From: a virus
Lineage: Duplodnaviria; Heunggongvirae; Uroviricota; Caudoviricetes
Direction: 5' to 3' (one strand)
DNA length: 35,933 nucleotides
Virus record (IMG/VR): IMGVR_UViG_2684623171_000008
Positions 2,778 through 29,072 of the stretch are shown piece after piece. Made by a program: the position numbers and the translations under genes. The notes under the pieces are model-generated. The model did no database searches. It was given only the letters and a program-made list of their open reading frames with translations, and had not been told where the DNA came from. The stretch's first letter is position 1, and each line of letters starts with the position of its first letter.

Positions 2778-3962
2778 ATGAGTGAAACTCGTTTTCATGG
2801 TGCCCGTGTTACGGAAAATACCGACCTGGTAACAGCGATTAACGATGTTGATTCCAGCGTTATCGGTATCGTGGCAACGGCGGATGATGCGGACGCGAAG
2901 CTGTTCCCGCTGAACAAGCCCACACTGCTGACCCGCGTCAATGACGTGCTGGGAAAATGCGGAACAACGGGGACGCTTTATCGTGCGCTTAAGGCCATCG
3001 CAGACCAGGTGAGCACAAAGGTGATCGTCGTTCGCGTGGCTGAACACAAAGAAGAAGACGGAAAGACGCAGGATCAACTGGTTATCGGTGGTTCTGAGGA
3101 TGACGGCAGCTATACGGGGATGTATGCGCTGCTTGTTGCAGAACAGGATGAAAGCATCGGATACCGTCCGCGTATTCTGGCCGCGCCGGAGCTGGACACG
3201 GAGGCGGTGACAAAATCCCTGTGCGTGATTGCGGGTAAGCTGCGCGCGTTTGTGTATGCCTCATGTCACGGCTGTAACACGATGGCTGAGGCGATTACCT
3301 ACCGCCAGAAATTCAACGAACGTGAGGTGATGCTCTTATGGCCGGACTTCATCGCCTACAACCCGAAAAGTGGCAAAAACGAAACGTTCCCCGCGCCTGC
3401 CTATGCGTGCGGCCTTCGTGCGTACATTGACCATGAGCAGGGCTGGCACAAATCGCTGTCCAACGTTCCGGTTAAAAATGTGCTGGGAATGTCCAGGCAT
3501 GTGTTCTGGTCGTTGCAGGCCGAAGACAGTGATGCCAACAGCCTCAACAACAAAGAAATCACGACCATTATTCGTCGCAACGGGTTCCGCTTCTGGGGCA
3601 ACCGCACACCGGAAACGAACGCCTACATCTTTGAGGTGTATACCCGAACCGCACAGGTGCTGGCTGATTCAATTGCGGAAGCGCAGTTTGAAACCATCGA
3701 CAGTCCACTGACGCCTGCGAACGTGAAGGATGTTATCAGTGCCATCAGGGCAAAACTGGATTCACTGGTTACTGCCGGGAAACTGATTGGCGCGTCGTGC
3801 TGGTATGACGTGGTGGATAACAGCACCACGGATTTACGTCAGGGGCGTGTGCGTATTCGCTACAAATATACGCCCGTTCCTCCGCTGGAAGATATGGAGC
3901 TTTACCAGACGTTTACTGATGAATACTTTGATCCCGCATTTGCGGTGTTGGGAGGTGTCTGA
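2778..3962 (+). CDS. FI: Contractile tail sheath protein FI
   Basis: 394 aa; conserved P2 FI stretches (FPLNKP, LRAF.YAS, GWHKSLSNV, RRNGFRFWGNRT, YTPVPPLE). Confidence 0.9.
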   Translation: MSETRFHGARVTENTDLVTAINDVDSSVIGIVATADDADAKLFPLNKPTLLTRVNDVLGKCGTTGTLYRALKAIADQVSTKVIVVRVAEHKEEDGKTQDQLVIGGSEDDGSYTGMYALLVAEQDESIGYRPRILAAPELDTEAVTKSLCVIAGKLRAFVYASCHGCNTMAEAITYRQKFNEREVMLLWPDFIAYNPKSGKNETFPAPAYACGLRAYIDHEQGWHKSLSNVPVKNVLGMSRHVFWSLQAEDSDANSLNNKEITTIIRRNGFRFWGNRTPETNAYIFEVYTRTAQVLADSIAEAQFETIDSPLTPANVKDVISAIRAKLDSLVTAGKLIGASCWYDVVDNSTTDLRQGRVRIRYKYTPVPPLEDMELYQTFTDEYFDPAFAVLGGV

Positions 3963-4474
3963 TGGCTGTACCAAAACATCTTCGCTTTTTTACGCTGTTT
4001 GTGAATGGTGAAAACGAAGTGGGTAAGGTGACGTCCGTCACTCCACCTAAACTGACGCGCAAAACTGAAAGCTATCGTGGCGGTGGCATGATGGGGGCGG
4101 TGAGTATCGACCTCGGTCTTGATGATTCTGCGCTTGATGCGAGTTTTGTCATGGGGGGCGCAGTTCGTGAGCTGTTCCTTAAATATGGCGGCACGATTGA
4201 CGGCACGTTGCTGCGTTTTGCGGGTGAATACTACACCGATGCAGAAAGTGATCTGTATGAAATCGAGATGCGCGGGCGTGTGACGGAAATTGATATGGGG
4301 GAAGCCAAACAGGGCGAAGCCACATCACACACTTACGCTGTCAAAAACACCTACTACAAGCTGAGCGTTAACGATCGTCCGCTGTGGGAAATCGACCTGC
4401 TGAACCACATCTACCGGAAGGACGGCAAGGACATCGTGCCTGATCGCATCCGTTCCGCGCTTGGGCTTGGCTGA
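3962..4474 (+). CDS. FII: Tail tube protein FII
   Basis: 170 aa; ATGA overlap with the FI stop; P2 FII-like. Confidence 0.9.
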   Translation: MAVPKHLRFFTLFVNGENEVGKVTSVTPPKLTRKTESYRGGGMMGAVSIDLGLDDSALDASFVMGGAVRELFLKYGGTIDGTLLRFAGEYYTDAESDLYEIEMRGRVTEIDMGEAKQGEATSHTYAVKNTYYKLSVNDRPLWEIDLLNHIYRKDGKDIVPDRIRSALGLG

Positions 4475-4528
4475 TAAGTAATATGCAGGCGGCGCAGTGC
4501 GCCGCCTCTGACTGAAAGGAGTTTCCTG

Positions 4529-4894
4529 ATGAAAGAGACGAAAAACATCGATACCGAAAACACGGTAGTTGCTGACACTGTGAAAGAAACCAGTGAGCGT
4601 GGCGTAAAACTTACCCAACCAATTGAGCGAGGCGGCGAAAAAATCACGTATGTGGAGATCACCGGGGCTATTGAGCAGGCTGGATCTCTGCGAGATTTGT
4701 CGCTGTCTGATGTGCTGAATCTGAAAGCGGAATCCATGTTTACGCTGCTGTCACGCGTGACATCACCGCGACTGGATGAAGTGACGATCAAAAAAATGGC
4801 ATCCCGTGACTTTATTCAGTTATGTGTGGTTGCCGTAAATTTTTTGAGCGGTGCGGACTCTGGCGGGAAGAACGAACAGGCGACGGAAGCCTGA
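4529..4894 (+). CDS. E: Tail assembly chaperone E
   Basis: 121 aa; AAGGAG RBS; sits between the tube and tape-measure genes and contains the slippery site. Confidence 0.8.
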   Translation: MKETKNIDTENTVVADTVKETSERGVKLTQPIERGGEKITYVEITGAIEQAGSLRDLSLSDVLNLKAESMFTLLSRVTSPRLDEVTIKKMASRDFIQLCVVAVNFLSGADSGGKNEQATEA

Positions 4895-5058
4895 TCACGG
4901 TTGTGTGCTTTGAGCACATAGAAGACTTTGTGGCAGATATTGCCGTTATTTTTAACTGGTCGCCCGCCGAAATCTTCATGATGACGCCCGGCGAAGTGGT
5001 TAGCTGGCGTGAGCGGGCGGCACTTCGCAGCGGGAATGCAGACAATGAAGACTCTTGA
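4529..5058 (+). CDS. E+E' frameshift fusion product (-1 shift at 4840-4846)
   Basis: E frame to the slippery site, then the -1 frame (track ORF 4822..5058) to TGA at 5056-5058. Confidence 0.65.
4840..4846 (+). other. Programmed -1 frameshift slippery heptamer T_TTT_TTG (E to E')
   Basis: Codons AAT TTT TTG in the E frame; the -1 frame stays open to 5058. This is the heptamer used by P2 E/E'. Confidence 0.7.
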
Positions 5059-7852
5059 TATCCGGGTCGCTTTCAGCGCCGTTGACAGGCTGACCCGACC
5101 TGCAGAAAACGCACGCCGCCTGATGGGGCAGTTTGGTGACTCCATCCAGCGAACGCAGGGGGCGATCAAAAATCTCGAGCGTCAGGCGCGTTCATTTGAG
5201 CGCGCCCGCGACGCTGTCAGTAAAGCGGATGCGGGTATCGTGAAAGCACGACGCCAGCTTAACGCCCTTAATCAGTTACAACGCACGGGTACAGTGCTCA
5301 GCGAAAAACAACAAAAGCTGATGCAGCAGTTAAGCACCCGGCTTGAACGCCTGAATGAATCGCGCACACGGGAAATTCAGAAAATGCGGGAGCTTGGCGG
5401 AGAGCTGAAACGCCACGGCATTTCCCTGACAGGCAGCGATAACACCATCCAGCAGGCCATCAGACGCACCGAACAGTACAACAACCAGCTTGAACGCGAA
5501 CGGCAGGCGCTTGCGCGTGTAACGCGGGCGCGTGAGCGGTATTCGCGCGCACAGGAAACAGCGGGAAAACTGAAAACAGGTGGTGCGCTGGCAATTGGTG
5601 CGGCAGCTGCGGGCGGCTATGCTGCCGGGCGTTTTTTGCAGCCTGCGATCGGGTTCGGGAAAGAGATGTCCCGCGTTCAGGCACTGACGCGAATCGACAA
5701 AAACAGCCCGCAGTTTAAGGCGCTGCGTGAGCAGGCGTTAAAACTTGGCTCTGAAACGCAGTTCACCGCAGGCGATGCCGCCAGTGGGCAGGCATTTCTT
5801 GCAATGGCTGGTTTTACTCCGCAGGCCATTCAGGCTGCGCTTCCCGGCGTGCTGAGCATGGCAACGGCTGGCGGTATGGATCTCGGCGAGACGGCGGATA
5901 TTGGCTCAAATATCCTGACGCAGTTCGGCCTTTCTGCTGACCAGATGGACCGGGTCGGTGACACACTTACCGCAGCGTTTACCCGTACCAACACTGACCT
6001 TCGCGCACTGGGTGAAACCATGAAATATGCAGGTCCGGTGGCGGGCAAGCTGGGAATATCGCTGGAGCAGGCCGCAGCGATGGCGGGCGTACTGGCGAAT
6101 ATGGGTATCAGGGGAAGTGATGCCGGGACGGCAATGCGTGCCAGCCTGGCTCGTCTGGCATCACCGCCAAAGGCGGCGGCAGAAGCTCTGAAAGAGCTGG
6201 GCGTGTCCGTCTCTGATGCGAACGGCAAAATGCGCCCGATGGAGGATTTGCTGGCCGACCTTTATAAAGCCACCCGCAAATACGGGGAAGTTGACCGGGT
6301 ATCGTTCTTTAAGGACATTGCCGGAGAAGAGGCTTTCACATCATTTATGGCCCTCGTTGATGCGGCAGGTGACGGCTCCTTACCTAAACTGAGAAAAGAA
6401 CTTGAAGGCGCGCGCGGTGAGGCTGAGCGCACGGCAAAGGTTATGGCCAACAACCTTGACGGCGATCTGAAATCACTCGGCAGTGCATGGGAAGGGTTGC
6501 GCATCCGCATTGCAGATCTGATTGACGGTCCGCTGCGTTCTGTCACGCAGTGGCTAACGCGGGTGGTCTCAAAGGTGACGGCACTGGCGCAGGCCCATCC
6601 TGTACTGACGCGCCAGCTACTGATTGCAGGCGGTGCGCTGCTGGCAGTGACTGCAACCGTAGGCTCGTTGTCGCTTGCTCTTGGTGTGCTTGCTGGCCCA
6701 CTGGCAAAACTGCGTCTTGGTTTTTCCCTCCTGACCGGATCAATGAATGCTGTCAGGCTCCTGCCAGCACTATGGGGAATGGTGACGGGTTCCGTTTCTT
6801 TGCTGGGGGGTGCTATCGGGGCGCTGTTCAGTCCGGTTGGTCTTATCGTGGCTGCGCTTGCCGGAGCTGCCGTTCTTATCTGGAAATACTGGGATCCCAT
6901 CAGGGCATTTTTTGCCGGGGTGTTCAGCGGGATTATGGAAAGGCTGGCCCCGTTGCGCGAAACCTTTGAACGGTTTGGTTCTGTTTTTGACGCAATCGGA
7001 AGCGGGATCAGCCAGGTGTTTAACTGGTTTAAATCGCTGCTGTCACCGATGGAGTCCAGCAAGGAAACGCTGGATAAATGTACCAGTGCTGGCGAGATAT
7101 TCGGTAACGTTCTTGGCGGTGCGTTACAACTTGTTCTGACGCCTGCAAAAATGCTACTGGATACGCTGGCGTGGATACTTGAAAAACTTGGCGTCCTTCC
7201 GGATGAAGCGGAAAGGGCGCGCAAGAAAATCGAAGACGCACAGCGTGCGGCCATTCTTCAGGACAAGGTTGCCTTGCTTCAGGGGGACCTGGCGAAAATC
7301 AATCCGCCGAAGCCTGTGGAAAATGGCAATGGCACCGGAGGTGATAAACCCAAAGACAACAAACCGCTCACAGACAGCAATACCGGTACGCTACGCAGAC
7401 TCAGCAAAATTGCTGATAACACAGGTAAGCTGGTTGATGAGACGAAAAAACGCATTGGCCCCGGCGATATTGTCTTTAAGAACCTGCCCCGCGCACTTGC
7501 TGTTCGTGGGGAGTGGCAGGAGCGGAAGATTGCGCAGGTCAGTAAGCCTGCTTCCGCAATCAACATCACACCCGTGGTCCCGACTCCTCTGCCTCCGGCG
7601 CTGGTCCCTGTTGTTGCGGCCAGCTCCCGCCCGGTGGCGGAGGCCATACGATCGCCAGTGGCATCAGTTCCTGCAACTTCCCGTAACCGGGAGCCTGTTG
7701 TCTCCGGATTTGGCGGTGAAATTCATGTTCATCTGCATAACGTTGTTACGCAGAATCCCCGCGAACTGGCGAAACTGGTCGGTGAAATGGTCAGGGCAGA
7801 ATTGGAACGACGCGACCGTGCCGGACGTGGCAGTTTTTACGATAAAGATTGA
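5036..7852 (+). CDS. T: Tail tape measure protein T
   Basis: About 940 aa; coiled-coil N-terminus, central hydrophobic/Gly-Ala-rich region; overlaps the E' end. Start uncertain (5009, 5036 or 5045). Confidence 0.85.
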   Translation: MQTMKTLDIRVAFSAVDRLTRPAENARRLMGQFGDSIQRTQGAIKNLERQARSFERARDAVSKADAGIVKARRQLNALNQLQRTGTVLSEKQQKLMQQLSTRLERLNESRTREIQKMRELGGELKRHGISLTGSDNTIQQAIRRTEQYNNQLERERQALARVTRARERYSRAQETAGKLKTGGALAIGAAAAGGYAAGRFLQPAIGFGKEMSRVQALTRIDKNSPQFKALREQALKLGSETQFTAGDAASGQAFLAMAGFTPQAIQAALPGVLSMATAGGMDLGETADIGSNILTQFGLSADQMDRVGDTLTAAFTRTNTDLRALGETMKYAGPVAGKLGISLEQAAAMAGVLANMGIRGSDAGTAMRASLARLASPPKAAAEALKELGVSVSDANGKMRPMEDLLADLYKATRKYGEVDRVSFFKDIAGEEAFTSFMALVDAAGDGSLPKLRKELEGARGEAERTAKVMANNLDGDLKSLGSAWEGLRIRIADLIDGPLRSVTQWLTRVVSKVTALAQAHPVLTRQLLIAGGALLAVTATVGSLSLALGVLAGPLAKLRLGFSLLTGSMNAVRLLPALWGMVTGSVSLLGGAIGALFSPVGLIVAALAGAAVLIWKYWDPIRAFFAGVFSGIMERLAPLRETFERFGSVFDAIGSGISQVFNWFKSLLSPMESSKETLDKCTSAGEIFGNVLGGALQLVLTPAKMLLDTLAWILEKLGVLPDEAERARKKIEDAQRAAILQDKVALLQGDLAKINPPKPVENGNGTGGDKPKDNKPLTDSNTGTLRRLSKIADNTGKLVDETKKRIGPGDIVFKNLPRALAVRGEWQERKIAQVSKPASAINITPVVPTPLPPALVPVVAASSRPVAEAIRSPVASVPATSRNREPVVSGFGGEIHVHLHNVVTQNPRELAKLVGEMVRAELERRDRAGRGSFYDKD

Positions 7853-7858
7853 GGAGTC

Positions 7859-8353
7859 ATGGCCATGATGATGATCTACGGCATGTTTGTTTTTGAGCTG
7901 CGCACATTGCCGCATCAGCAGTTACAGCAAAATAAAAGCTGGCGGCATGTGAAAAATGAACGCGTTAACCGTTCAGCAAGCTGGCAGTATATCGGGGCAG
8001 GCGATGATCGCATCGTGCTTTCTGGTGTGCTTTATCCTGAAATCACAGGTGGCGAAGTGTCGCTGTCGCTGCTGACCACGCAGGCGTATACAGGACGCCC
8101 CTGGCCTCTGATTGATGGCGTCGGACAGATTTACGGCATGTATGTACTGACTGAAACGAATACGACCCGCTCCGAGTTTGATCGCTACGGTAAGGCGAAA
8201 AAGATAGAATTTTCACTGACTCTTGAACGCTGTGATGAGGATTTGCGGGAGCGCCTGCAATCCTCATCGTTCAGTGATATGCTGTCCGGCTTCAAAGATA
8301 AGGTCACATCATCCCTTAACAGCGCGGCCAGCTCCGTTAAAGGGCTGTTTTGA
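7859..8353 (+). CDS. U: Tail protein U
   Basis: About 160 aa directly after T; P2 gpU-like. Start may be ATG 7865, which has better GAGGAG spacing. Confidence 0.8.
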   Translation: MAMMMIYGMFVFELRTLPHQQLQQNKSWRHVKNERVNRSASWQYIGAGDDRIVLSGVLYPEITGGEVSLSLLTTQAYTGRPWPLIDGVGQIYGMYVLTETNTTRSEFDRYGKAKKIEFSLTLERCDEDLRERLQSSSFSDMLSGFKDKVTSSLNSAASSVKGLF

Positions 8354-8360
8354 TTAACGC

Positions 8361-8390
8361 AAAACCGCTAATGGTCAGATTAGCGGTTTT
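8361..8390. terminator. Perfect 12-bp-stem hairpin between convergent U and invertase (bidirectional terminator-like)
   Basis: AAAACCGCTAAT-GGTCAG-ATTAGCGGTTTT; overlaps the invertase stop codon; T-rich flank on the plus strand. Confidence 0.5.
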
Positions 8391-8979
8391 CATTTTCCTG
8401 AATCTGCCTGATTGTTTCTTCAGCCTGTATATCGCCTACAGGGTGATAACGATAAATCGTCGATATGCCGATGTCGTAAATGATCGCCAGTTGTTTCCTG
8501 TCATGACCGTTTTTAATCAGCCTCGCTATTTGCTCGTGTTGTTCTTTTGTCAACTTCGGGCGACGTCCGCCAATGCGTCCTTGTGCGCGTGCTGCTGCCA
8601 GCCCGGCCAGTGTACGCTCTACAATTAATTCACGTTCCATTTCGGCTAAAGCTCCCATGACGTGAAAAAAGAAACGCCCCATGGGTGTTGATGTGTCAAT
8701 GCTGTCCGTCAGACTACGGAAATTAACACCTTTTTCCCGCAATTCCTCAATAAGCGTGATCAGGTGTTTCATACTTCTGCCCAGTCTGTCCAGCTTCCAG
8801 ACAACCAGCGTATCTCCTTCTGATAGCGTTCTGAGCAGTTTTTTCAATCCCGGTCTGGCTGATTTCGTTCCGCTGATTTTATCTTCAAAAATCAGTTCAC
8901 ATCCTGCGCACTCCAGCGCGTTACGCTGCAATTCTGTATTCTGGTCATTTGTTGATACGCGGACATAGCCAATAAGCAT
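8380..8979 (-). CDS. Serine-recombinase DNA invertase (Gin/Pin/Cin/Hin family)
   Basis: 199 aa; MLIGYVRVSTNDQNT...VVWKLDRLGRSMKHL...GRIGGRRPKLT, with catalytic Ser region and C-terminal HTH; GGGGA RBS. Confidence 0.9.
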   Translation of the reverse strand: MLIGYVRVSTNDQNTELQRNALECAGCELIFEDKISGTKSARPGLKKLLRTLSEGDTLVVWKLDRLGRSMKHLITLIEELREKGVNFRSLTDSIDTSTPMGRFFFHVMGALAEMERELIVERTLAGLAAARAQGRIGGRRPKLTKEQHEQIARLIKNGHDRKQLAIIYDIGISTIYRYHPVGDIQAEETIRQIQENENR

Positions 8980-9034
8980 GATGGATCCCCTGAATAAAAA
9001 CCGGGGATGATGCCAGTTAGCCGTAATCTCTGCA

Positions 9035-9060
9035 TTTTCTTAAACGTTGGTTTGGGAGAA
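9035..9060. other. Invertase crossover site A (gix/hix-like 26 bp, 12-2-12)
   Basis: TTTTCTTAAACG-TT-GGTTTGGGAGAA; its reverse complement shares 14 identical bp (TTCTCCCAAACCAA) with site B. Confidence 0.65.
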
Positions 9061-9420
9061 GCGGCAAAACGGGATGTGGGGACAGGGGAAAATCAGATAC
9101 CGGACATGGCCTCTTTTGCCAGTGGTGATGGGTGGATGAAATTACCCAACGGGAAAATCCTGCAATATGGTCGTGGTGCGGTTACGCCGACATTATCGAC
9201 GCAAACAATGAGAATTACATTCAGCATCCCTTTCCCCAAAAAAGCGGACTGCGCCATGCTTACTCATTCTGGTGATGGCGGTGCGCCTTTAGGCGCTGGG
9301 CGAGGGTTCGTGATGACTGCAGAAGGCCCAACGTTAACCGGCTTTAATTCTGCTTACAGAACGTCATCAACCAGCGACACGGTATCGATGAATTACAGTT
9401 GGTGGGCTGTTGGTGAGTAA
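9049..9420 (+). CDS. Alternative (currently unfused) tail-fibre C-terminal segment, expressed only after inversion
   Basis: Open frame from site A (..GLGEAAKRDVG...) to the stop at 9420, in the same frame as H relative to the shared GLGE codons; the track ORF start at 9007 is not a real N-terminus. Confidence 0.55.
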   Translation, partial: GLGEAAKRDVGTGENQIPDMASFASGDGWMKLPNGKILQYGRGAVTPTLSTQTMRITFSIPFPKKADCAMLTHSGDGGAPLGAGRGFVMTAEGPTLTGFNSAYRTSSTSDTVSMNYSWWAVGE

Positions 9421-9431
9421 TTTTATTCAGG

Positions 9432-9884
9432 GTGATTTATATGAACGAATATGTTTATAGCGCAAGGCATAATGCTTTTTTCCCTGTGGATATGATTGAT
9501 AAATATAAATCAGAGGGATGGGATTTATCAGACGCTAAGGAAGTAAATCAAAATATTATCAGTGAGTTTATGGCTGAACCGCCACAAGGAAAAATCCGTA
9601 TTGCCGGAGATGATGGGCTGCCTGCGTGGGCAGATATTCCTCCACCCACGCATGAAGAGCTTATTGAAATTACTGAATCAGAAAGACAGCTACTAATTAA
9701 CCAGGCCAACGAATACATGAACAGTAAGCAATGGCCCGGTAAAGCCGCTATTGGTCGTCTGAAAGGTGAGGAACTGGCGCAATATAATTTGTGGCTGGAT
9801 TATCTGGACGCACTGGAACTGGTTGATTCCTCCAGTGCGCCAGATATTGAATGGCCTACGCCTCCGGCAGTTCAGGCCAGATGA
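9432..9884 (+). CDS. Tail fibre assembly chaperone, alternative copy (tfa')
   Basis: 150 aa; C-terminal APDIEWPTPP tail resembles the other tfa (APDVIWPELP); lies inside the invertible segment. Confidence 0.7.
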   Translation: MIYMNEYVYSARHNAFFPVDMIDKYKSEGWDLSDAKEVNQNIISEFMAEPPQGKIRIAGDDGLPAWADIPPPTHEELIEITESERQLLINQANEYMNSKQWPGKAAIGRLKGEELAQYNLWLDYLDALELVDSSSAPDIEWPTPPAVQAR

Positions 9885-10458
9885 CATCCGGCGCGGTGCT
9901 GGTATCTGTTGCCGTCACCGCGTCAATGTAATCCAGCACAGCGTTAAGTCGGGTGGTTTCTGCCTGCGTCAGTTTACGTCCGGCCTGCAATTTCAGTTGA
10001 ATCAGACTGATGGAAGCCATTGCAGTATCAATCAGCGACTGGCGCTGTGCTTCTGCCGCTTCTACTGCGGTACCGTGTTGTGCCTCAGTATCTGTCACCC
10101 ATTTTTCACCATCCCATTTATCGTATGGCGTTAACGGGGCGATAGTGGTTGTATTTTCGGGATAGTCGCCTAGTGCTGTGATTTCTTTGGCATCTCCCGT
10201 TTCGGTGTTATAGACGATTTCACCGCGATGGTCTGACACATATTCCCATGATTTTAAATCCACAGAACGGCAAATTGTATAACCAGCCTTAGATGTAACA
10301 GGAGCGTCTAAACAGGAATATGCTGGAATACCGACACCCACAGCAAGATATTCAGTTGATGCAGAAATATACTCCCGTGTTTCACCATCATAGTTATAGA
10401 CAGTAATATTCCCCGCCTTCGTGGCAATAAGCTCGCCATTTAATACAGCGTTATCCAT
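9856..10458 (-). CDS. G: Tail fibre assembly chaperone (P2 G-like), currently expressed copy
   Basis: 200 aa immediately downstream of H; its 3' end overlaps tfa' convergently by 29 bp. Confidence 0.75.
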   Translation of the reverse strand: MDNAVLNGELIATKAGNITVYNYDGETREYISASTEYLAVGVGIPAYSCLDAPVTSKAGYTICRSVDLKSWEYVSDHRGEIVYNTETGDAKEITALGDYPENTTTIAPLTPYDKWDGEKWVTDTEAQHGTAVEAAEAQRQSLIDTAMASISLIQLKLQAGRKLTQAETTRLNAVLDYIDAVTATDTSTAPDVIWPELPEA

Positions 10459-12092
10459 TATGCAGCCCTCACGATATAGTTAAATGCAATATTCCGTGGA
10501 CGAGTTTCATTTATCCCATATGCTGTTGTTCTCTGATTCCCGACAAAATATCCATTTGGATTCGAAGATACATAGTAATCATCAAAATCAAGTGGACTAT
10601 CAGCGCCCGGAGTCAGACTGGCAATATATCCTCTACCCATAACTTCTGATGCTGGTATTTCTTTTGTACGATAATCACTGACTCTGAATATCTGCCCCTG
10701 ATGAGTATGTAATTCTACCCCTCCATTCTGAAGACTTAGCAAGGCACGTACAGCATCAATACCACGCCCGTCATCCCAGCCACGAATAAACTCACCACGT
10801 AAATCAGGCAATTTATTTGTCGGATAAGCCTTTGCCAGTTCCGGGTATTCTTCAGCAGAAAAAGCGGCACCGTTGCATTTCAGCCAGCCTGTTGGCGGAG
10901 TGGCTGAAGGCCACGGAACAGGCACCCCAACCGGTAATGCAGAGCCTTCTCCCAAACCAAGGTAATCAAGAACTCCCTGAGTGCTGGTTTTACCAAGAAT
11001 GGCACGTCCAACACTTGTCAACGCGGTTAACGCGGCACGATCTGCCCCTGTAAAATATGGGAGTTTATCTGCTGATGTAGCAAGCTCCGCCAGCGCCGTC
11101 AGGGTGGCATCCTTCGGTTGCTTACCCGCAAGCGCGTTAGTCATGGTGGTCGCAAAATTCGGGTCATTGCCCAGCGCCGCAGCCAGTTCGTTCAGCGTGT
11201 TCAGTGCATCAGGTGACGAATCTACAAGTGCGGCAATCGCGGCCATAACGAAAGCCGTGCTTGCGATCTGGGTACTATTAGTTCCCTGTGGCGCTGTTGG
11301 TGTTGTTGGCGTTCCGGTCAGTGCCGGGCTGTTTAATGGTGCTTTCTTGTTCGTTTCATCCATTACCACCTTAACAGCTTTTGGTGTCGCTGCCAGCGTT
11401 TCAGACGTGCTGTTCGTGGCGCTACTGAGCTGAACAATCCCTTTTTGTATAGTGGTGGCGTTCTGGGCGGTATATTTCCCGTTAGCCAGGTCATATGCAG
11501 CCTTAACCGCTTTCGGTGTTGCGGCCAGTGTTTCTGATTCACTGTTAATTGCACTGCTTAACTGAGTAAAACCTTTTGCGGTCAGCGAGGCGTCCGGGTG
11601 ACGTCGTGACTGTTCGTGCTCTGAGATTTTATCATCCACATATTTGCGGGTTGCCAGAACCACAGACGGGTCGATTTTCAGCGTGATAGCTTCGGTGTTC
11701 GTGACAACCAGAATCATGCGGATAGTCTGGGTGCGTCCACTGCCTTCCTGCAACTGCGGTTTGTACGTTTCCGGGCAGTTTGCCACCGCAATGAGTACAC
11801 CTTCATCATCATAAAGACCAATCTCACGGATCCAGAATCCTCCCTCGTTTTCAGGGATGATTTGCTCCGCAATAATCTGGCTCTGATTGTTAGGGTCAAC
11901 ACTCAGAAGATTCAGCGGTGCAATGCGTTTCTGGTTAATCAGTTTTGTTTGTGCAGGGTCTGGTGTTGGTAACACACCATTTGCATCACCAACGGCCATT
12001 TGCGTCAGATTCAGCTTACTGCCGAGCATCGTCGCGTTAGCCAGTCGTGCTGCGCCCTGATTAGTCAGAATGGCGTAGTATTTCACTGTCAT
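10458..12092 (-). CDS. H: Tail fibre protein H (constant N-terminal part plus currently fused variable C-terminus)
   Basis: 544 aa; long stretches close to P2 H (DPSVVLATRKYVDDKISEHEQSRRHPDASLTAKGFTQLSSA...). Crossover site B lies at codons ..DYLGLGEG.. Confidence 0.9.
   Translation of the reverse strand: MTVKYYAILTNQGAARLANATMLGSKLNLTQMAVGDANGVLPTPDPAQTKLINQKRIAPLNLLSVDPNNQSQIIAEQIIPENEGGFWIREIGLYDDEGVLIAVANCPETYKPQLQEGSGRTQTIRMILVVTNTEAITLKIDPSVVLATRKYVDDKISEHEQSRRHPDASLTAKGFTQLSSAINSESETLAATPKAVKAAYDLANGKYTAQNATTIQKGIVQLSSATNSTSETLAATPKAVKVVMDETNKKAPLNSPALTGTPTTPTAPQGTNSTQIASTAFVMAAIAALVDSSPDALNTLNELAAALGNDPNFATTMTNALAGKQPKDATLTALAELATSADKLPYFTGADRAALTALTSVGRAILGKTSTQGVLDYLGLGEGSALPVGVPVPWPSATPPTGWLKCNGAAFSAEEYPELAKAYPTNKLPDLRGEFIRGWDDGRGIDAVRALLSLQNGGVELHTHQGQIFRVSDYRTKEIPASEVMGRGYIASLTPGADSPLDFDDYYVSSNPNGYFVGNQRTTAYGINETRPRNIAFNYIVRAA
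10947..10972. other. Invertase crossover site B inside H (gix/hix-like 26 bp)
   Basis: Plus strand TTCTCCCAAACC-AA-GGTAATCAAGAA; inverted relative to site A with identical central dinucleotide (TT in the H reading direction). Confidence 0.65.
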
Positions 12093-23372: not shown

Positions 23373-23825
23373 CGCGCTTCGCTTGTCTGCTGCTTCGCCG
23401 GGGCATAAAAAATTTATGCCCCGACTCTCCAGCTCCTGTATCAGTCAGATAATTTCACGACGCTTTCCTGCTTATTGCCATCATCGACGGTCAGATTCTT
23501 ACGCAATCCCACTGCGCTGACTGCATGTTCTCGCCGCCTCAGTGCGATTTTGACGGCCTTACCTTTCACCCCATCAAACCAGAATCCCTCACGTATTTTT
23601 CACGCTCAGCGTGAGAAATACGGCCATTCTGTCGTGTCGCTGCGACATCGTTAAGGGAACGCTATTTACCCCCCTGAAACGCGGGCTGTTCCCCCGTCAC
23701 TTGCGCGCAGAAAAAACGCGTTTTTTTGTGCACGTACGGATCCTTGACGGATCCAGCCACCACGCGGGCCGGAAGTACAAAAAGTCGTTCAAAAAAATTG
23801 TGCAAACTTGTGCACTATCGTGCAA

Positions 23826-23851
23826 ACAAAAAAAGCGCCTTATCGGCGCTT
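23826..23851 (-). terminator. Rho-independent terminator for the leftward ORF at 23860-24129
   Basis: Hairpin AAGCGCC-TTATC-GGCGCTT followed on the minus strand by a U-run. Confidence 0.5.
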
Positions 23852-23859
23852 CAAAAGTA

Positions 23860-24129
23860 TCAATTGTTGCTGTTTATTAATCGCCAACCACGAACATATG
23901 CTTCATAGGCATCTCTGTGCCTTACAGTTCCAGCCTGGCTAAACGGAATGTTAGCTAAAACTAAATCATTCTGAGCCATAGCGCGTCCTTCAAGCGCATC
24001 TTTTATGCCTAGCTCAAAAGCACAGGCAGCGCATTTGTGCCGACCTTCTTGTCCTTGATATTCAGGGAGAGACAGAAATGTTGGATTATAACGATGAGGG
24101 TTCTTGCAAATACCTGTTTTAGCCCGCAC
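23860..24129 (-). CDS. Hypothetical Cys-containing protein (89 aa) in the old/tin cargo position
   Basis: GTG start; preceded by a long structured leader and followed by a terminator; no recognisable family. Confidence 0.35.
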   Translation of the reverse strand: MRAKTGICKNPHRYNPTFLSLPEYQGQEGRHKCAACAFELGIKDALEGRAMAQNDLVLANIPFSQAGTVRHRDAYEAYVRGWRLINSNN

Positions 24130-24258
24130 TTTATTTACCTCATAGGAAAAATATGCGTGCCTTTACAGAGGTGCGTGTAAGCAATAAAATATACGACGCA
24201 CATTTTGATTTACTTCGGAAGGCACGCATATCAGGTTAAGTGAGTCCGACCGAGTTTT

Positions 24259-24293
24259 ACGCCCCAATAGTTGCTGCTATTGGGGCGTTTTGC
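24259..24293 (+). terminator. Strong hairpin with T-run (plus-strand terminator-like) inside the leader region
   Basis: ACGCCCCAATAG-TTGCTG-CTATTGGGGCGT followed by TTTTG. Confidence 0.45.
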
Positions 24294-24493: not shown

Positions 24494-24805
24494 TTACTCA
24501 GGAAATAACGCCCGGATATTCCCAGCCATCTGGCTGGTTATCTTAGCCACTGGTGCAGACTGTGCTTCAAACTTTTTTGAGCTGATTTGTGTCACAGGTA
24601 ACATCTCATCATCAGCCCATGCGGCCAGTCGGTAAGCCTCTGCCGGATTCGTCTTCAGAAGTGCCAGCCCGGCCAGAAAAGCCACGCGTTGGCCGCTTTT
24701 GCGGGCTTCTGGTGTAAGGCTGTCCAGCCAGGCGCATGCTTCTCCTTCGTTCTTGACGGCGGCGGGCTTCAGATAGAAACTTATCCGTCTGGTTGGTGTC
24801 GTCAT
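24494..24805 (-). CDS. ParR/StbB-like partition adaptor protein
   Basis: 103 aa from ATG 24805 (AAGGAG RBS); ISFYLKP...LDSLTPEARKSGQRVAFLAGLAL...LFPE resembles plasmid R1 ParR; directly follows the parM-like gene. Confidence 0.65.
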   Translation of the reverse strand: MTTPTRRISFYLKPAAVKNEGEACAWLDSLTPEARKSGQRVAFLAGLALLKTNPAEAYRLAAWADDEMLPVTQISSKKFEAQSAPVAKITSQMAGNIRALFPE

Positions 24806-24809
24806 TGGT

Positions 24810-25769
24810 TTACTCCTTGTCCATTGCGTACAGCCCATTAACCAGAGCAAACTGTGGCACCCCGTCCGCGATGAAAGTCGCATTAACTCCGCAGGCTTCG
24901 CGGATAGCGGGTGCCACAATCTCCGCCCCGCCACCGACAACCATCACCCGCCCGTAACCCGAAAAAACCGCCAGCGCGCGGATCACGCGTTGTTTCAGTG
25001 TTTCTTCCTTTTCACGAATAACCGCCATCAGGCTGGCGTAATGCGCGTCATTGTGGATGTGCTGGCGCAGCCAGGCTTCATTATGGCGATGTTCGATAAT
25101 GGTATTGGCGATGTGGTGACTGGTGCGCATACCGTTAGTGGCCATCACCGACAGTACGGCATCGGCCATAAGAGAAACGCCTACGTGTGGATCGCAAAAC
25201 ACCTGGCTGATACCTGCCAGTTGCCCCTGAACCTTTGCCACATCCAGCGTGGTTCCGCCCAAATCCACAATCAGCAGGGATTCAAACGGACTCATGTCAG
25301 CCAGTGCTTTAAAGCCAGCCGGAATGGATTCAGGCATAACCCGTACGTTACGGATAGTGAATGCTTCGCCGTTCTGGTACTCCACCGGGCGCATGACGTT
25401 CGCTTTTTTGCGGTTGATGTTGGCCATGTCCGGCTGTGCGTTTGTGTCGAAATATTCGCTCAGTGGCAGGGTAACAACCACATCCACTTCCTGTGGCGTG
25501 ATGTCTGATTTGACCAGCGCGTGATGAATGGCAATGACATTCACATCGCTGTACTGGTATTGCGTGTCGGTCGTCTGGACAAAGCGATCGCTGACCGGAT
25601 CAAAACCATAGCGCACGCCATCAAGCATGTAGTTAGCAGGCTGCGAGCCACCGAACGGCGCAGACCATTCCGACTTGAAGCTGTTCGGGCTGATGGCGTT
25701 GCGGCGTTCGCCGTTCTCAGTCCATGCCAGCTTGATGTTGGTGGAGCCGTCGTCGATGTAAATTTTCAT
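24810..25769 (-). CDS. ParM/StbA-like actin-type segregation ATPase
   Basis: 319 aa; MKIYIDDGSTNIKL, LIVDLGGTTLD and VMVVGGGAEI are actin-fold phosphate and adenosine motifs; extensive resemblance to R1 ParM as recalled from memory. Confidence 0.85.
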   Translation of the reverse strand: MKIYIDDGSTNIKLAWTENGERRNAISPNSFKSEWSAPFGGSQPANYMLDGVRYGFDPVSDRFVQTTDTQYQYSDVNVIAIHHALVKSDITPQEVDVVVTLPLSEYFDTNAQPDMANINRKKANVMRPVEYQNGEAFTIRNVRVMPESIPAGFKALADMSPFESLLIVDLGGTTLDVAKVQGQLAGISQVFCDPHVGVSLMADAVLSVMATNGMRTSHHIANTIIEHRHNEAWLRQHIHNDAHYASLMAVIREKEETLKQRVIRALAVFSGYGRVMVVGGGAEIVAPAIREACGVNATFIADGVPQFALVNGLYAMDKE

Positions 25770-25798
25770 GTCGGTTTTCCTTATGTTGATTAATTAAT

Positions 25799-25912
25799 CG
25801 TTTACGGGATTCTGAAATCCCGTTTTTGCCTGTTTTGTGCGCGCCTCATATATCGCTGCGCGTTTTTTGCTCATTTACGGGATTCGTGAGTCCCGTTTCT
25901 GTCTGTTTTTTG
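25799..25912. repeat. Two ~41-bp direct repeats, each with an 8-bp-stem hairpin, upstream of parM (candidate parC-like centromere/operator)
   Basis: Repeat 1 at 25799-25839 and repeat 2 at 25872-25912 (TTTACGGGATTC..TCCCGTTT..CTGTTTT), 73 bp apart; repeat 2 lies in the last codons of gene A. Confidence 0.45.
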
Positions 25913-28686
25913 TTTCCACTGGTCAGGCCACCCCGCAGCAGGTCTGCTTTGCGGCTGGCGCGTTCAGTGGTTTCACTGATTCTCTGTGCGTGCTCTGCGT
26001 CGCGGATGGCGCGCAGCATGTCAGAAAGCACGGTAACGGGTGTTTTCATGGTGTTCTGGTCCTGCTGAAGTGTGGATGCCAGGCGTGCGGCGGCTTCAGG
26101 GTCTGATGCCCCCAGCTGTGCCAGATAGCTGGCGACCGGGTTATGGCGGATCTCCGTGCTGCTTACGCCATGATTACGGCTCAGACGCTGCCAGAGCTGC
26201 GTGATTCGGCTGTCCGGGCGGGTATCCGGTTTGCGTACAATTTCAAATCCCTGCGGTGCAATGATGCTGCCGTCAACGTACAGACTGCCGCCCCGTAACA
26301 GGTGCTGCATCTGTTGTTCACCGATATGCAGGCCGAGAGATTCAGCAGACTCCCGCCATTCTTTAGCGAGTAACTCGTGGTTATCAGGCAAAGGCCGCTG
26401 CTGTTTGCGGCTCTGTGTCCAGTTCTGCATTTCATCGCTGCTGTTTTTTGCCTGTTTGTCACGAAGCGAACGCATCAGCGCCCGGCGTTCGTGCCGTTTC
26501 AGTGAGCGCATCCATTCATTTACTTCAACGCCGTCAGGAAGCTGCGGCCACGGTGCTGGCCGTTCTTCCGGCTGTTCTGTCCCGTTGTTGCCTGTTTCCT
26601 GTACACGGGGACAGTTATTGCCACGAGTCCAAGGGGCGGCAGGGCCGCCCTGAAGGTCAAAACCATTTTCGCGGGCGCTGTCTTCCGCTTCCGGTTTGCG
26701 TCTTACCAGCTTCCAGTTATCCGGATGCGTGCATACGCGGGAAGACTCCCCAATGAGCGGCGACCAGATCCCGTAAATCTGTACGCTCTGTTCACCGTAA
26801 TCGTTCAGCTCATCTGCGAGGTCGTAGGCGGTGCGAATCAGGTAGTCTTTGCGTGGAACAAGTACGCCACCCTGTTTCTCAATGTAGGTGGCAAAACATC
26901 CGGCATCAGCGGCAGCGAGTACCGCGTCCATTGCGTCATCCTTCAGCCGTTGCGGGCCTTCCGGATTGCGTGCCATCTGGCTGGCAAGGCGGCGCAGTTC
27001 ACGCCACACCTGACGGGAGGGGATGCCAAAGAACTGGAACTGACGGACCCGGTGAAGGCGCGCCCAGCCGATGGCGCGCTCCACGCTCTCGGCCATTGAT
27101 TTACCTGTTTCGTGGTCAACGCGTGGCTTGCCCGTTTTCGGGTCGATGCCATCCACGGCGCGGCTGTCCAGGTTCTTTCCGATGTAGGTGGCGATGTAGC
27201 TGGTTGGCGTGCCTTTTGAGCCGTCGACGTACTCCGCCTTAAAACGCGGAGTTATGTCATCGCCCAGCTCGTGGCGGTCTTCCTGAATGGCAATATCGCA
27301 GACGTGGGACACGATGGTTTCAATCTCGTCCGGATGTGCAAAGACCATCATATGCCAGTGCACAGTGCCGTCATGGTGAGGCTCCACCGTGCGGATGCCA
27401 TACCAGCGCAGGCCGTCGCGGTTCAGTTTTTTGCGGACCGCCGCAAAAAACGTGTTAACCAGGTAATCGCTGGAGTCGCGCATTGTGGCCCCGTTCCATT
27501 TGGGATTCGGATGACCGTTCTCCGTTGTTGCGTGGTATTTTGACGGGCAGGTGACAGTCAGAAACACCGCTCTGTCGCCACGGGCTTCGGCCAGAAGTTC
27601 CAGCCCCTTCATGGTGGCCATCATTTCTGCCTTACGGTGAACCGGGTTACTTACTCCCGCGTAATACACCGTCTCGAGATCAATCGTGAACCCGTCTTCA
27701 TTTTCCAGCATGAAACTTTTCAGGAAATCGCGTGTTTTCTCGCGCTGTGCGCGAAACTCGCTTAACGCGTCCTGGCTCAGATAGGGTGATGTTTTTCTGG
27801 AAACCAGACAGGCGGCGCGGAGTTGTTCTTCCCGCCACTCGCAACGTAACAGCCACAGTTTGCGTTTCCACCATTCCGCACAGGTCAGGCGAAGGATTGC
27901 GCCCGGCAGCAGCTCCGTGTCCGGTTCGTTCCTCCGGTCTTTGTCTGTTGTCAGTGCGTCATAATGTGGAGGCATGGCGTGCAGGTGTAACGCCATGCGG
28001 GCCAGCATCTGATACGCCTTCAGCGTTACATCCATGGTCAGCTCACCATCGGTCGCGCCAAAGCCATCGCAGAGTTTTTCGAAGGTGCTGCTGAACATCG
28101 CCGCCGTCATGGTGGCCAGCGTCTGTATCTGGTGCTTGTTGAGCTGCGGCAGGTAAAGCAAATCATCCAGGCGTTCGCGTCCGGCAAGGGAGCGATAACC
28201 CGGTGTCAGCCAGCGGTGGTCGGTGCGGTCCAGGCGTTCGAATATTTTGCGCAGGGTTCCGCGCGCGTAGCGTTCAGCCTGCCAGCTCTTTTTGCCTTTC
28301 TGGCGATCGGCTTCCTGTTTTTTGCGCAGGAAAGAGAGGTGGCGGCTCAGAGGTTCACGCAGATAAACGGGAAGCACCTTCAGTGTGGCAAAAGCACGGG
28401 CCACCGGGTCTTGTTCTGTTGCCTGACGCTTGCTGATGATGCTTTGTGCCAGCTTTTCACGCTGTCCGGCTTCCTCAAGGGATGCCATGAGTTTTTTACC
28501 CACGGTGGATTGTGCGAAAAAGGCTTCCTCCTTCGCTTCCTGTTCTTCCAGAGCCTTTTTGTCTGCCTCAAGGTAGTAACGGATGGCGCGTTGCAGGTCG
28601 GTTTCAGTTTCCTGCCTGTGCTCCGTAAATCTGGCCGGATCAATGGCTGGCCGTGGTTCATTCCAGCTCCATGCAAACTCATTCAT
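25846..28686 (-). CDS. A: Rolling-circle replication initiator A (P2 gpA-like HUH endonuclease)
   Basis: About 946 aa; HWHMMVF (HUH) motif and downstream Tyr-containing region; ATGA coupling to the upstream ORF. Longer than P2 gpA as recalled from memory. Confidence 0.85.
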   Translation of the reverse strand: MNEFAWSWNEPRPAIDPARFTEHRQETETDLQRAIRYYLEADKKALEEQEAKEEAFFAQSTVGKKLMASLEEAGQREKLAQSIISKRQATEQDPVARAFATLKVLPVYLREPLSRHLSFLRKKQEADRQKGKKSWQAERYARGTLRKIFERLDRTDHRWLTPGYRSLAGRERLDDLLYLPQLNKHQIQTLATMTAAMFSSTFEKLCDGFGATDGELTMDVTLKAYQMLARMALHLHAMPPHYDALTTDKDRRNEPDTELLPGAILRLTCAEWWKRKLWLLRCEWREEQLRAACLVSRKTSPYLSQDALSEFRAQREKTRDFLKSFMLENEDGFTIDLETVYYAGVSNPVHRKAEMMATMKGLELLAEARGDRAVFLTVTCPSKYHATTENGHPNPKWNGATMRDSSDYLVNTFFAAVRKKLNRDGLRWYGIRTVEPHHDGTVHWHMMVFAHPDEIETIVSHVCDIAIQEDRHELGDDITPRFKAEYVDGSKGTPTSYIATYIGKNLDSRAVDGIDPKTGKPRVDHETGKSMAESVERAIGWARLHRVRQFQFFGIPSRQVWRELRRLASQMARNPEGPQRLKDDAMDAVLAAADAGCFATYIEKQGGVLVPRKDYLIRTAYDLADELNDYGEQSVQIYGIWSPLIGESSRVCTHPDNWKLVRRKPEAEDSARENGFDLQGGPAAPWTRGNNCPRVQETGNNGTEQPEERPAPWPQLPDGVEVNEWMRSLKRHERRALMRSLRDKQAKNSSDEMQNWTQSRKQQRPLPDNHELLAKEWRESAESLGLHIGEQQMQHLLRGGSLYVDGSIIAPQGFEIVRKPDTRPDSRITQLWQRLSRNHGVSSTEIRHNPVASYLAQLGASDPEAAARLASTLQQDQNTMKTPVTVLSDMLRAIRDAEHAQRISETTERASRKADLLRGGLTSGNKKQTETGLTNPVNEQKTRSDI

Positions 28687-29072
28687 GGCTGGTATCCCGT
28701 CACGCGCTGCCACTCCTGCGAGAAGAGGGCAGAAAGGCGGTTAAATTCAGCGGTGTATTCACTCAGCGAGGCACACCCGCCAGCAGTGCGATGCGCCAGC
28801 ATTGCCGCAAATACGGAGGCCGGGGAGTCGTAATACGCCAGCAGTGATTCTCCGTGTGGTGTCAGGCAGTGCAACGCCAGCCCGTGTGGTGTGAAGTCCA
28901 CGCGGTAGCAGTCGTCTACTGTGAAATAAAGGGTGTCTGCATTCTCCGGTTTTGTGGTGCGTGCTCTGTTGTCACGACCACGGATGTAGAGATCAAATAA
29001 TCCCTGAAGAACGGGAGCCAGACGGGTGTCCTGTGTGCGCACCCATCTTGTGAAGTCATGAGCGTCAATCAT
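28683..29072 (-). CDS. Hypothetical early-operon protein (129 aa)
   Basis: Translationally coupled to A (ATGA overlap). Confidence 0.45.
   Translation of the reverse strand: MIDAHDFTRWVRTQDTRLAPVLQGLFDLYIRGRDNRARTTKPENADTLYFTVDDCYRVDFTPHGLALHCLTPHGESLLAYYDSPASVFAAMLAHRTAGGCASLSEYTAEFNRLSALFSQEWQRVTGYQP

Follow-up and report, generated by a model that had tools for sequence, protein, structure and literature searches.

Known actin-type systems and the phage cassette

The closest described counterparts of the locus reported here are the parMRC (stbAB) system of the IncFII plasmids R1 and NR1, the srpMRC locus of the SXT/R391 integrative conjugative elements (ICEs), and the AlpAC/alpS system of the CGP3 prophage of Corynebacterium glutamicum. 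The locus is a parM–parR gene pair with upstream repeats, found in a P2-like prophage that makes up a stretch of viral DNA of 35,933 nucleotides (nt) (35.9 kb; IMG/VR record IMGVR_UViG_2684623171_000008). This stretch is called the window below, and all coordinates refer to it. In R1, the parC site is split, with the promoter between its two halves (PMC5016525). Carraro et al. (2015) showed that srpMRC reduces the loss of the ICEs that carry it (PMC4489591). For AlpAC, a role in viral DNA replication or transport has been shown experimentally (PMC4446434, PMC5539076).

Compared to the R1/NR1 system, the phage cassette exhibits several common features. First, its ParM is a full-length homologue of R1 ParM (PDB 1mwk; E = 7.7e-92 over amino acids [aa] 1-316, approximately 50% identity, aligned end to end) with all of the nucleotide-binding motifs. 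Second, its ParR belongs to the same Pfam family and has an apparently similar C-terminal KNAxxL tail. Third, in both loci parM precedes parR and is itself preceded by the cis site in R1 and by a candidate cis site in the phage, with repeats that are split around a spacer. However, the phage cassette resides in an integrating prophage with rolling-circle replication rather than on a low-copy theta plasmid. Where R1 has ten 11-bp direct iterons, the candidate cis region of the phage consists of two 42-nt repeats, each with a 20-bp palindrome. Furthermore, its distal candidate site overlaps the end of a replication gene, and its proteins form a clade of their own.

The srpMRC locus resembles the cassette in being a type II-like locus on a normally integrated element whose transient circle is replicated by an HUH-type nickase. 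It differs in that the carrier is an ICE and not a tailed phage, and in that SrpM and SrpR are described as distant from R1 ParM and ParR whereas the phage ParM is close. Stabilization has been shown for the ICE, and for the phage it would follow by analogy. The AlpAC system likewise combines a prophage-encoded actin-like ATPase, a DNA-binding adaptor and upstream sites (PMC4446434, PMC5539076). Unlike the present cassette, it belongs to a Gram-positive host and uses a very divergent actin-like protein, which is related to the phage ParM by analogy only.

The cassette itself has been recorded before. According to Rousset et al. (2022), approximately one in four P2-like phages has a putative plasmid partitioning system in the gpA-gpQ hotspot, and their Table S5 lists it as "StbA + Plasmid_stab_B + hypothetical" with the accessions WP_000708312, WP_000211267 and WP_001594304 (PMC9122126). 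The locus of Escherichia coli O157:H7 FRIK944, which is 100% identical, has just these accessions for its three annotated proteins, and the system is the same object as the present cassette. The passages of the main text and supplement that concern it give the cassette one sentence, as probable non-defense content of the hotspot, together with a speculation on plasmid maintenance; these passages contain no analysis of its sites, selection, phylogeny or function (PMC9122126). The papers on P88 and on the Citrobacter prophage treat the cassette as an annotation at most. The Prokaryotic Genome Annotation Pipeline (PGAP) labels the two FRIK944 products "plasmid segregation protein ParM" and "plasmid partitioning/stability family protein". 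An earlier reading of the window from its letters alone, referred to here as the original prediction, had called a partition system in such a prophage unexpected. That view does not hold, as the proteins are named by PGAP and PHROGs, and the same arrangement and the same speculation stand in the relevant passages of Rousset et al. As an object, the cassette is therefore not new. The present analysis adds a phage clade with fixed synteny, the selection acting on parM, the anatomy of ParR and a two-site layout that recurs in relatives.

Gene layout, protein identity and selection

The cassette lies directly downstream of gene A (25846-28713, minus strand), which encodes a P2-type rolling-circle replication endonuclease. 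PGAP labels the product "replication endonuclease" and gives it 946 aa, compared to 955 aa for the open reading frame (ORF) called from its first start. On the same strand, parM occupies 24810-25769 (319 aa) in both the ORF table and the raw sequence and encodes an actin-fold partition ATPase with the motifs DDGSTN (aa 6-11), DLGGTTLD (aa 169-176) and GGGAE (aa 279-283). A gap of 4 nt separates its stop codon from the start of parR, which runs on the minus strand from an ATG at 24805 to its end at 24494 (24494-24805, 103 aa) and encodes a putative centromere-binding adaptor. The Shine-Dalgarno sequence of parR, AAGGAG, lies inside the 3' end of parM.

A profile- or structure-based search of both proteins against the ParM/StbA and ParR/StbB families had been proposed with the original prediction, and in profile searches each protein matched its family. 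ParM matched Pfam StbA_N (E = 9.7e-81), the ParM C-terminal domain (3e-68) and phrog_691, a "partition protein" in PHROGs (1.9e-88), in addition to R1 ParM. ParR matched Plasmid_stab_B (PF10784, the StbB/ParR family; 9.8e-24) over positions 1-66 of the 72-position model, and phrog_2515 (2.3e-59), which is also a "partition protein" family. A search of the cassette proteins against NCBIfam gave only sub-threshold matches and no equivalog. Judged by these matches, the pair is a bona fide ParM and ParR of the StbA/StbB family. Both protein components of a type II system are found: a StbA-family ATPase with intact motifs and, directly after its gene, that of a StbB/ParR-family adaptor.

Most of what the original prediction had described was confirmed. 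It had proposed a ParM-like ATPase with the three motifs, an adjacent ParR-like protein, and a location, within a P2-like prophage that bears an integrase, between gene A and the presumed cos region; the pair does lie between that gene and the portal/cos side. The parC-like region that it placed upstream of the pair agrees with the predicted candidate site as to position and repeats; the two direct repeats of about 41 bp with a hairpin proved to be 42-nt repeats, each with a 20-nt palindrome.

Within the phage clade, the nucleotide-binding residues of ParM (D6, D7, G8, S9, T10, E147, D169, G171, G172, T173, T174 and G279-G281) are invariant. Pairwise comparison of 60 distinct P88-like segments gave a ratio of nonsynonymous to synonymous polymorphism (pN/pS) of 0.069 for parM and 0.36 for the 3' end of gene A; parM is under strong purifying selection. 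In the same segments, the pN/pS of parR was 0.34 for the N-terminal 64 codons, 0.86 for the linker and 0.25 for the last 13 codons. By these ratios, the linker appears nearly neutral and both ends constrained, the pattern that would be expected of a working adaptor with two functional ends. Both cassette genes are clearly maintained by selection.

The alignment of 40 ParR variants agrees with this division. The N-terminus RRISFYLKP (MTTPTRRISFYLKP) does not vary and the C-terminal NI(R/Q)ALFPE is conserved, with a hypervariable linker (aa 65-90) between them. Distant phage ParRs keep a (K/R)xNAxxLFP tail, and this motif is common to all ParRs of the phage clade despite their very divergent linkers. 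The tail aligns with the C-terminal KKNAMKLIN of R1 ParR, and the N-terminal 61 aa share approximately 33% identity with that protein; the tail comparison is a lead and not a test. An AlphaFold2 model of the ParR monomer, built from an alignment of 18 sequences, has helices at aa 20-29, 32-52, 54-61 and 86-100 and a disordered linker, with a predicted local distance difference test (pLDDT) score of 58. Its N-terminal 17 aa are unmodelled, and the strand of a ribbon-helix-helix (RHH) fold forms only in the dimer. The C-terminal helix (aa 86-100) and the tail motif are a candidate ParM-binding tail. Several ParR alleles in E. coli share only the first approximately 18 aa and the last approximately 8 aa, and a homology break near position 24751 in some phage records falls within parR.

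Distribution and lineage

The region has counterparts of 100% identity in E. coli O157:H7 FRIK944 and several other strains, in a prophage that lies beside btuC. Its identity to P88-type phages (genus Xuanwuvirus, Peduoviridae) is 94-98%; these include P88 and Citrobacter phage phiSM and are represented by 14 phage records, and the cassette itself is 95-100% identical in phages of this type. A relative is encoded by 242 IMG/VR stretches. Among 5,426 complete E. coli genomes, parM was found in 1,279 at a threshold of at least 80% coverage and P88-type gene A in 1,320, so that parM is approximately 97% as frequent as the replication gene. Since the two counts are nearly equal, the cassette is essentially a core feature of a common prophage type and not sporadic cargo. 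Judged by these records and counts, it occupies the same place in virtually every member of Xuanwuvirus.

In the protein database, P88-type ParMs share at least 91% identity. After a gap follow ParMs of Hafnia, Plesiomonas, Serratia and Enterobacter at 53-62%, and then plasmid ParMs at approximately 50%. The loci of the phage-clade ParMs, in seven genera, have the fixed order gpA, parM, parR, variable cargo, portal. Four distant relatives were checked, and each proved to be a P2-like prophage with gpA, parM, parR (PF10784), variable genes (HicAB, a KAP NTPase, Ogr and unknowns) and then portal/terminase; Phage_GPA lies upstream of parM in all of the distant relatives. A species-level genome scan gave the same picture. 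All loci with a ParM of at least 53% identity have gpA, a detectable ParR and, wherever the flank extended far enough, portal/terminase homologues, and none of those at 52% or below has this arrangement. In a neighbor-joining tree, the phage ParMs group in a single clade that is nested within the plasmid ParMs, that of R1 among them.

The simplest reading of this tree and synteny is one old capture from a plasmid, which would have been followed by long retention at a fixed site beside the replication gene. The original prediction had treated the pair as interchangeable cargo, in the manner of old/tin of P2. This was not borne out by the genome counts or by the same position of the pair in Hafnia, Plesiomonas, Serratia and Enterobacter; as the gene orders indicate, the true hotspot of variable cargo starts downstream of parR.

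Several matches outside this pattern were noted. A locus of Escherichia albertii NBRC 107761 (3366-11128) is a mosaic, in which gpA is 97%, ParM 99%, ParR 54% and portal/terminase 30-35% identical to the window. Gram-positive assemblies labeled Vagococcus sp. WN89Y, uncultured Clostridiales and Streptomyces morookaense hold a 97%-identical P88 segment or a ParM that clusters with R1, and contamination by enterobacterial DNA is the likely explanation. The 44-kb plasmid unnamed1 of Apirhabdus apintestini (CP138907.1, 5992-7001) carries a parM whose N-terminal part is 61% identical to that of the window. It was considered as a P2-type phage-plasmid and rejected: a frameshift breaks this parM into two ORFs, and there is no gpA within 6 kb upstream.

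Upstream repeats as a candidate parC

Two 42-nt direct repeats lie upstream of parM, the proximal at 25798-25839 and the distal at 25871-25912. They share 81% identity and are 73 nt apart from start to start. Each is built around a palindrome of 20 nt, in which two 8-nt arms flank a 4-nt center, ACGGGATT-N4-AATCCCGT. The proximal palindrome (25804-25823) is perfect and lies 35-55 nt upstream of the parM ATG; the distal one (25877-25896) has one mismatch in the window and is perfect in many relatives. When the window was searched for ACGGGATTNNNNAATCCCGT with up to three mismatches, only these two sites were found, compared to 0.15 expected, and none of 100 shuffles gave two or more. Across the 60 P88-like segments, the arms of the palindromes vary little, and it is the 4-nt center that takes the recurrent changes. 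Each repeat can also be read as three WWACRGR units, two of them direct and 10 bp apart and one inverted. The six units within 150 nt are the densest cluster in the window, for a pattern that was chosen post hoc.

Between the repeats, a spacer (25840-25870) contains, on the minus strand, the gene A stop codon (25846-25848) and a putative weak promoter-like sequence, ATGAGC-16-TATATG. Closer to parM, the interval 25778-25794 of the same strand holds the motif ATTAATCAA (25794-25786), approximately 25 nt before the ATG, and the parM Shine-Dalgarno sequence AAGGA (25782-25778). This motif, a candidate −10 region, recurs upstream of parM in Hafnia and Plesiomonas.

The two-site layout recurs in relatives. 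Plesiomonas has two direct repeats 72 nt apart, of which the distal copy likewise lies in the 3' end of gpA, and Hafnia has two palindromes of the GGGATT type 85 nt apart. In both, the sites are thus approximately 72-85 nt apart and lie at approximately −40/−59 and −113/−131 from the ATG. Serratia and Enterobacter have, in the same upstream interval and in a different arrangement, a long inverted repeat with GGGA-containing half-sites (CGGGAAC). The unique pair of repeats upstream of parM, with a layout that recurs in relatives, is a candidate parC, the cis site of a type II system, and each repeat a candidate ParR site that may serve as a parC half or an operator.

The distal repeat encodes the last approximately 20 codons of gene A, a detail that was absent from the original prediction. 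Its sequence is therefore under two constraints, that of coding DNA and that of a putative binding site. In IMG/VR record IMGVR_UViG_2657245439_000011, the region that matches window positions 25830-25903 lacks exactly one 73-nt period, which leaves a single repeat upstream of parM and alters the C-terminus of gpA. This natural one-site variant looks like the product of recombination between the two direct repeats.

Proposed function and alternative explanations

The best reading of the cassette, although one that falls somewhat short of probable, is that of a functional ParMRC system which segregates transient extrachromosomal circles of the phage. The identity of both proteins, their conservation, the synteny and the architecture of the sites were observed, while we infer that ParR binds to the repeats, when expression takes place and what the phage gains from it. 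An N-terminal RHH would let ParR dimers bind the two clusters of repeats that lie just upstream of parM, the conserved C-terminal tail of ParR would capture the ends of ParM-ATP filaments, and the growing filament would push copies of the phage genome apart. The targets would be circles present after infection and before integration, and those present after excision, while gpA produces monomer circles. Because the prophage is normally integrated and the gpA rolling-circle system is its only replicon, the module most likely acts on such transient circles. Partition would give a copy to each daughter cell, and the element would not be lost before it integrates or completes lytic growth. Expression would probably occur by read-through from the early operon (cox...A), perhaps in addition to a weak ParR-repressed promoter at the repeats. 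No terminator-like site was found on the coding strand between gene A and parM, and read-through from gene A is expected because the hairpins have no U-tract on that strand.

Several observations weigh against partition of transient circles. First, the fold of ParR is predicted and not confirmed: its layout of an unmodelled N-terminal part, three helices, a linker and a C-terminal helix would fit an RHH adaptor with a flexible ParM-binding tail, but a Foldseek search of the model against PDB gave no match below E = 5.8, and phmmer found no sequence match to ParR in PDB even at E = 10. Owing to the low confidence of the model, the Foldseek matches are meaningless. Second, a scan of the coding strand for the sigma-70 consensus gave no promoter, and ATGAGC-16-TATATG in the spacer remained below threshold. 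Third, the array of sites is small, with two 20-bp palindromes or at most six post hoc short units, compared to the ten iterons of R1. Fourth, on the plus strand, opposite to the coding strand, each repeat forms a hairpin (8-bp stem, −10 kcal/mol) that runs into a T-rich tail and is scored as terminator-like; the repeats may therefore serve a different or a further purpose. Finally, no P2-like phage is known to benefit from partition in the short time before integration or after excision, and no functional study of the cassette or experiment on it was found in the searchable literature.

The alternative that survives best, although it is rather unlikely, is a role in the lytic cycle similar to that of AlpAC. 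ParM filaments tethered by ParR would position or disperse the circles that replicate or serve as packaging substrate, for efficient gpA replication or packaging, and inheritance by daughter cells would not be the point. P2 replication yields monomeric circles, which are the packaging substrate. The position of parM directly after gene A, with no terminator on the coding strand, suggests co-expression with the replication genes. In the CGP3 prophage, AlpC and its adaptor AlpA are needed for efficient viral DNA replication (PMC4446434, PMC5539076). However, AlpC is only distantly related to ParM, so that the analogy is purely functional. ParMRC spindles are known to work at low copy numbers, which weighs against a benefit where many circles share a cell that will soon lyse.

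It is improbable that the repeats are instead tandem intrinsic terminators that act against antisense (plus-strand) transcription from the cargo/cos side and shield gene A, with ParR binding elsewhere or the proteins acting without a cis site. The plus-strand hairpins described above would suit such terminators, and their T-rich tail belongs to the conserved 42-nt unit. In Plesiomonas, however, the repeats keep their spacing and position yet form poor hairpins, and the window contains no other candidate site for ParR. The position upstream of parM, straddling a spacer, fits the layout of parC (PMC5016525). Furthermore, the roles of terminator and centromere are not mutually exclusive.

Still less probable is a facultative plasmid-prophage, in which the cassette would let the phage persist as an autonomously replicating and partitioned episome, that is, a phage-plasmid. 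This is the speculation found in the relevant passages of Rousset et al. (PMC9122126), and an episomal, phage-plasmid-like state was also suggested by the original prediction. One record in PLSDB agrees with it: NZ_CP148288.1, a circular molecule of 34,461 bp deposited as a plasmid, is a whole P88-like genome with parMR and an integrase. The same phage is, however, integrated at 100% identity in a sister strain, and a single circular contig could be an induced replicative form. This is the only phage-sized circular record found, as the other "plasmid" matches of the cassette are large replicons or fragments. By their accession numbers, the records "Escherichia phage 520873" and "503458" were considered as separate replicons; the former was rejected, being a cut-out prophage region with host flank genes and an insertion sequence element. 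In the complete E. coli genomes, 1441 of 1443 places with parM and 1628 of 1630 places with gene A are chromosomal. With more than 99% of the occurrences in the chromosome, a standing plasmid lifestyle is poorly supported. The prophages sit at chromosomal attachment sites, and gpA, the only replicon, would be within the repressed early operon if P2 biology applies. Maintenance outside the chromosome without integration, the mark of a phage-plasmid, is not what is found for this phage, which has an intact integrase and lies beside btuC.

The least probable alternative is a cassette in the service of the lysogen or of competition among phages, through incompatibility with or exclusion of related phages or plasmids or as an unrecognized defense of the gpA-gpQ hotspot: the locus is described as a defense hotspot in the relevant passages of Rousset et al. 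(PMC9122126), and several divergent ParR alleles stand beside a nearly invariant ParM, but the predicted DNA-contacting N-terminus of ParR and the sites are conserved and not diversified, and the module is fixed in position while defense genes vary downstream. A known defense system was rejected as well, since ParM, ParR and the neighboring 89-aa ORF matched 0 families of PADLOC-DB at E up to 1.

Neighboring cargo and the cos region

The variable cargo downstream of parR in the window is a single ORF at 23860-24129 (minus strand, 89 aa; WP_001594304), which belongs to phrog_3941, a family of unknown function, and has no match in Pfam or PADLOC. It has its own sigma-70-like promoter, TTGACA-16-TAAGAT (24365 to 24338), and a terminator-like hairpin just past its end (23852 to 23832). 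The interval between this ORF and parR contains two perfect inverted repeats, one with 13-nt arms 55 nt apart (24151-24231) and one with 12-nt arms and a 6-nt loop (24259-24288; ACGCCCCAATAG...CTATTGGGGCGT), which could act as terminators or operators. The 19-nt cos sequence of P2 had no match in the window with up to three mismatches. The position of cos therefore stays presumed, and the cos of this phage type differs from that of P2 or lies elsewhere in 23373-23850.

Implications for P2-like phages

For now, the main outcome is that an existing annotation and a remark in the literature are confirmed. Approximately one in four sequenced E. coli strains carries the cassette in a P2-like prophage. 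A wider reading, quite possible but held with more doubt than belief, is that ParMRC is an integral and anciently acquired part of the replication region of widespread integrating P2-like phages. It would provide these phages with an actively partitioned, plasmid-like transient phase, with more lysogenization and less loss after excision, or it would organize the progeny circles of rolling-circle replication. If so, the cassette would be the first tailed-phage counterpart of the srpMRC of ICEs and an actin-based system for positioning viral DNA in E. coli. If transient circles are partitioned, the idea that ICEs behave like plasmids would extend to tailed temperate phages, and the cassette would offer a genetically easy E. 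coli model for the viral use of a bacterial cytoskeleton.

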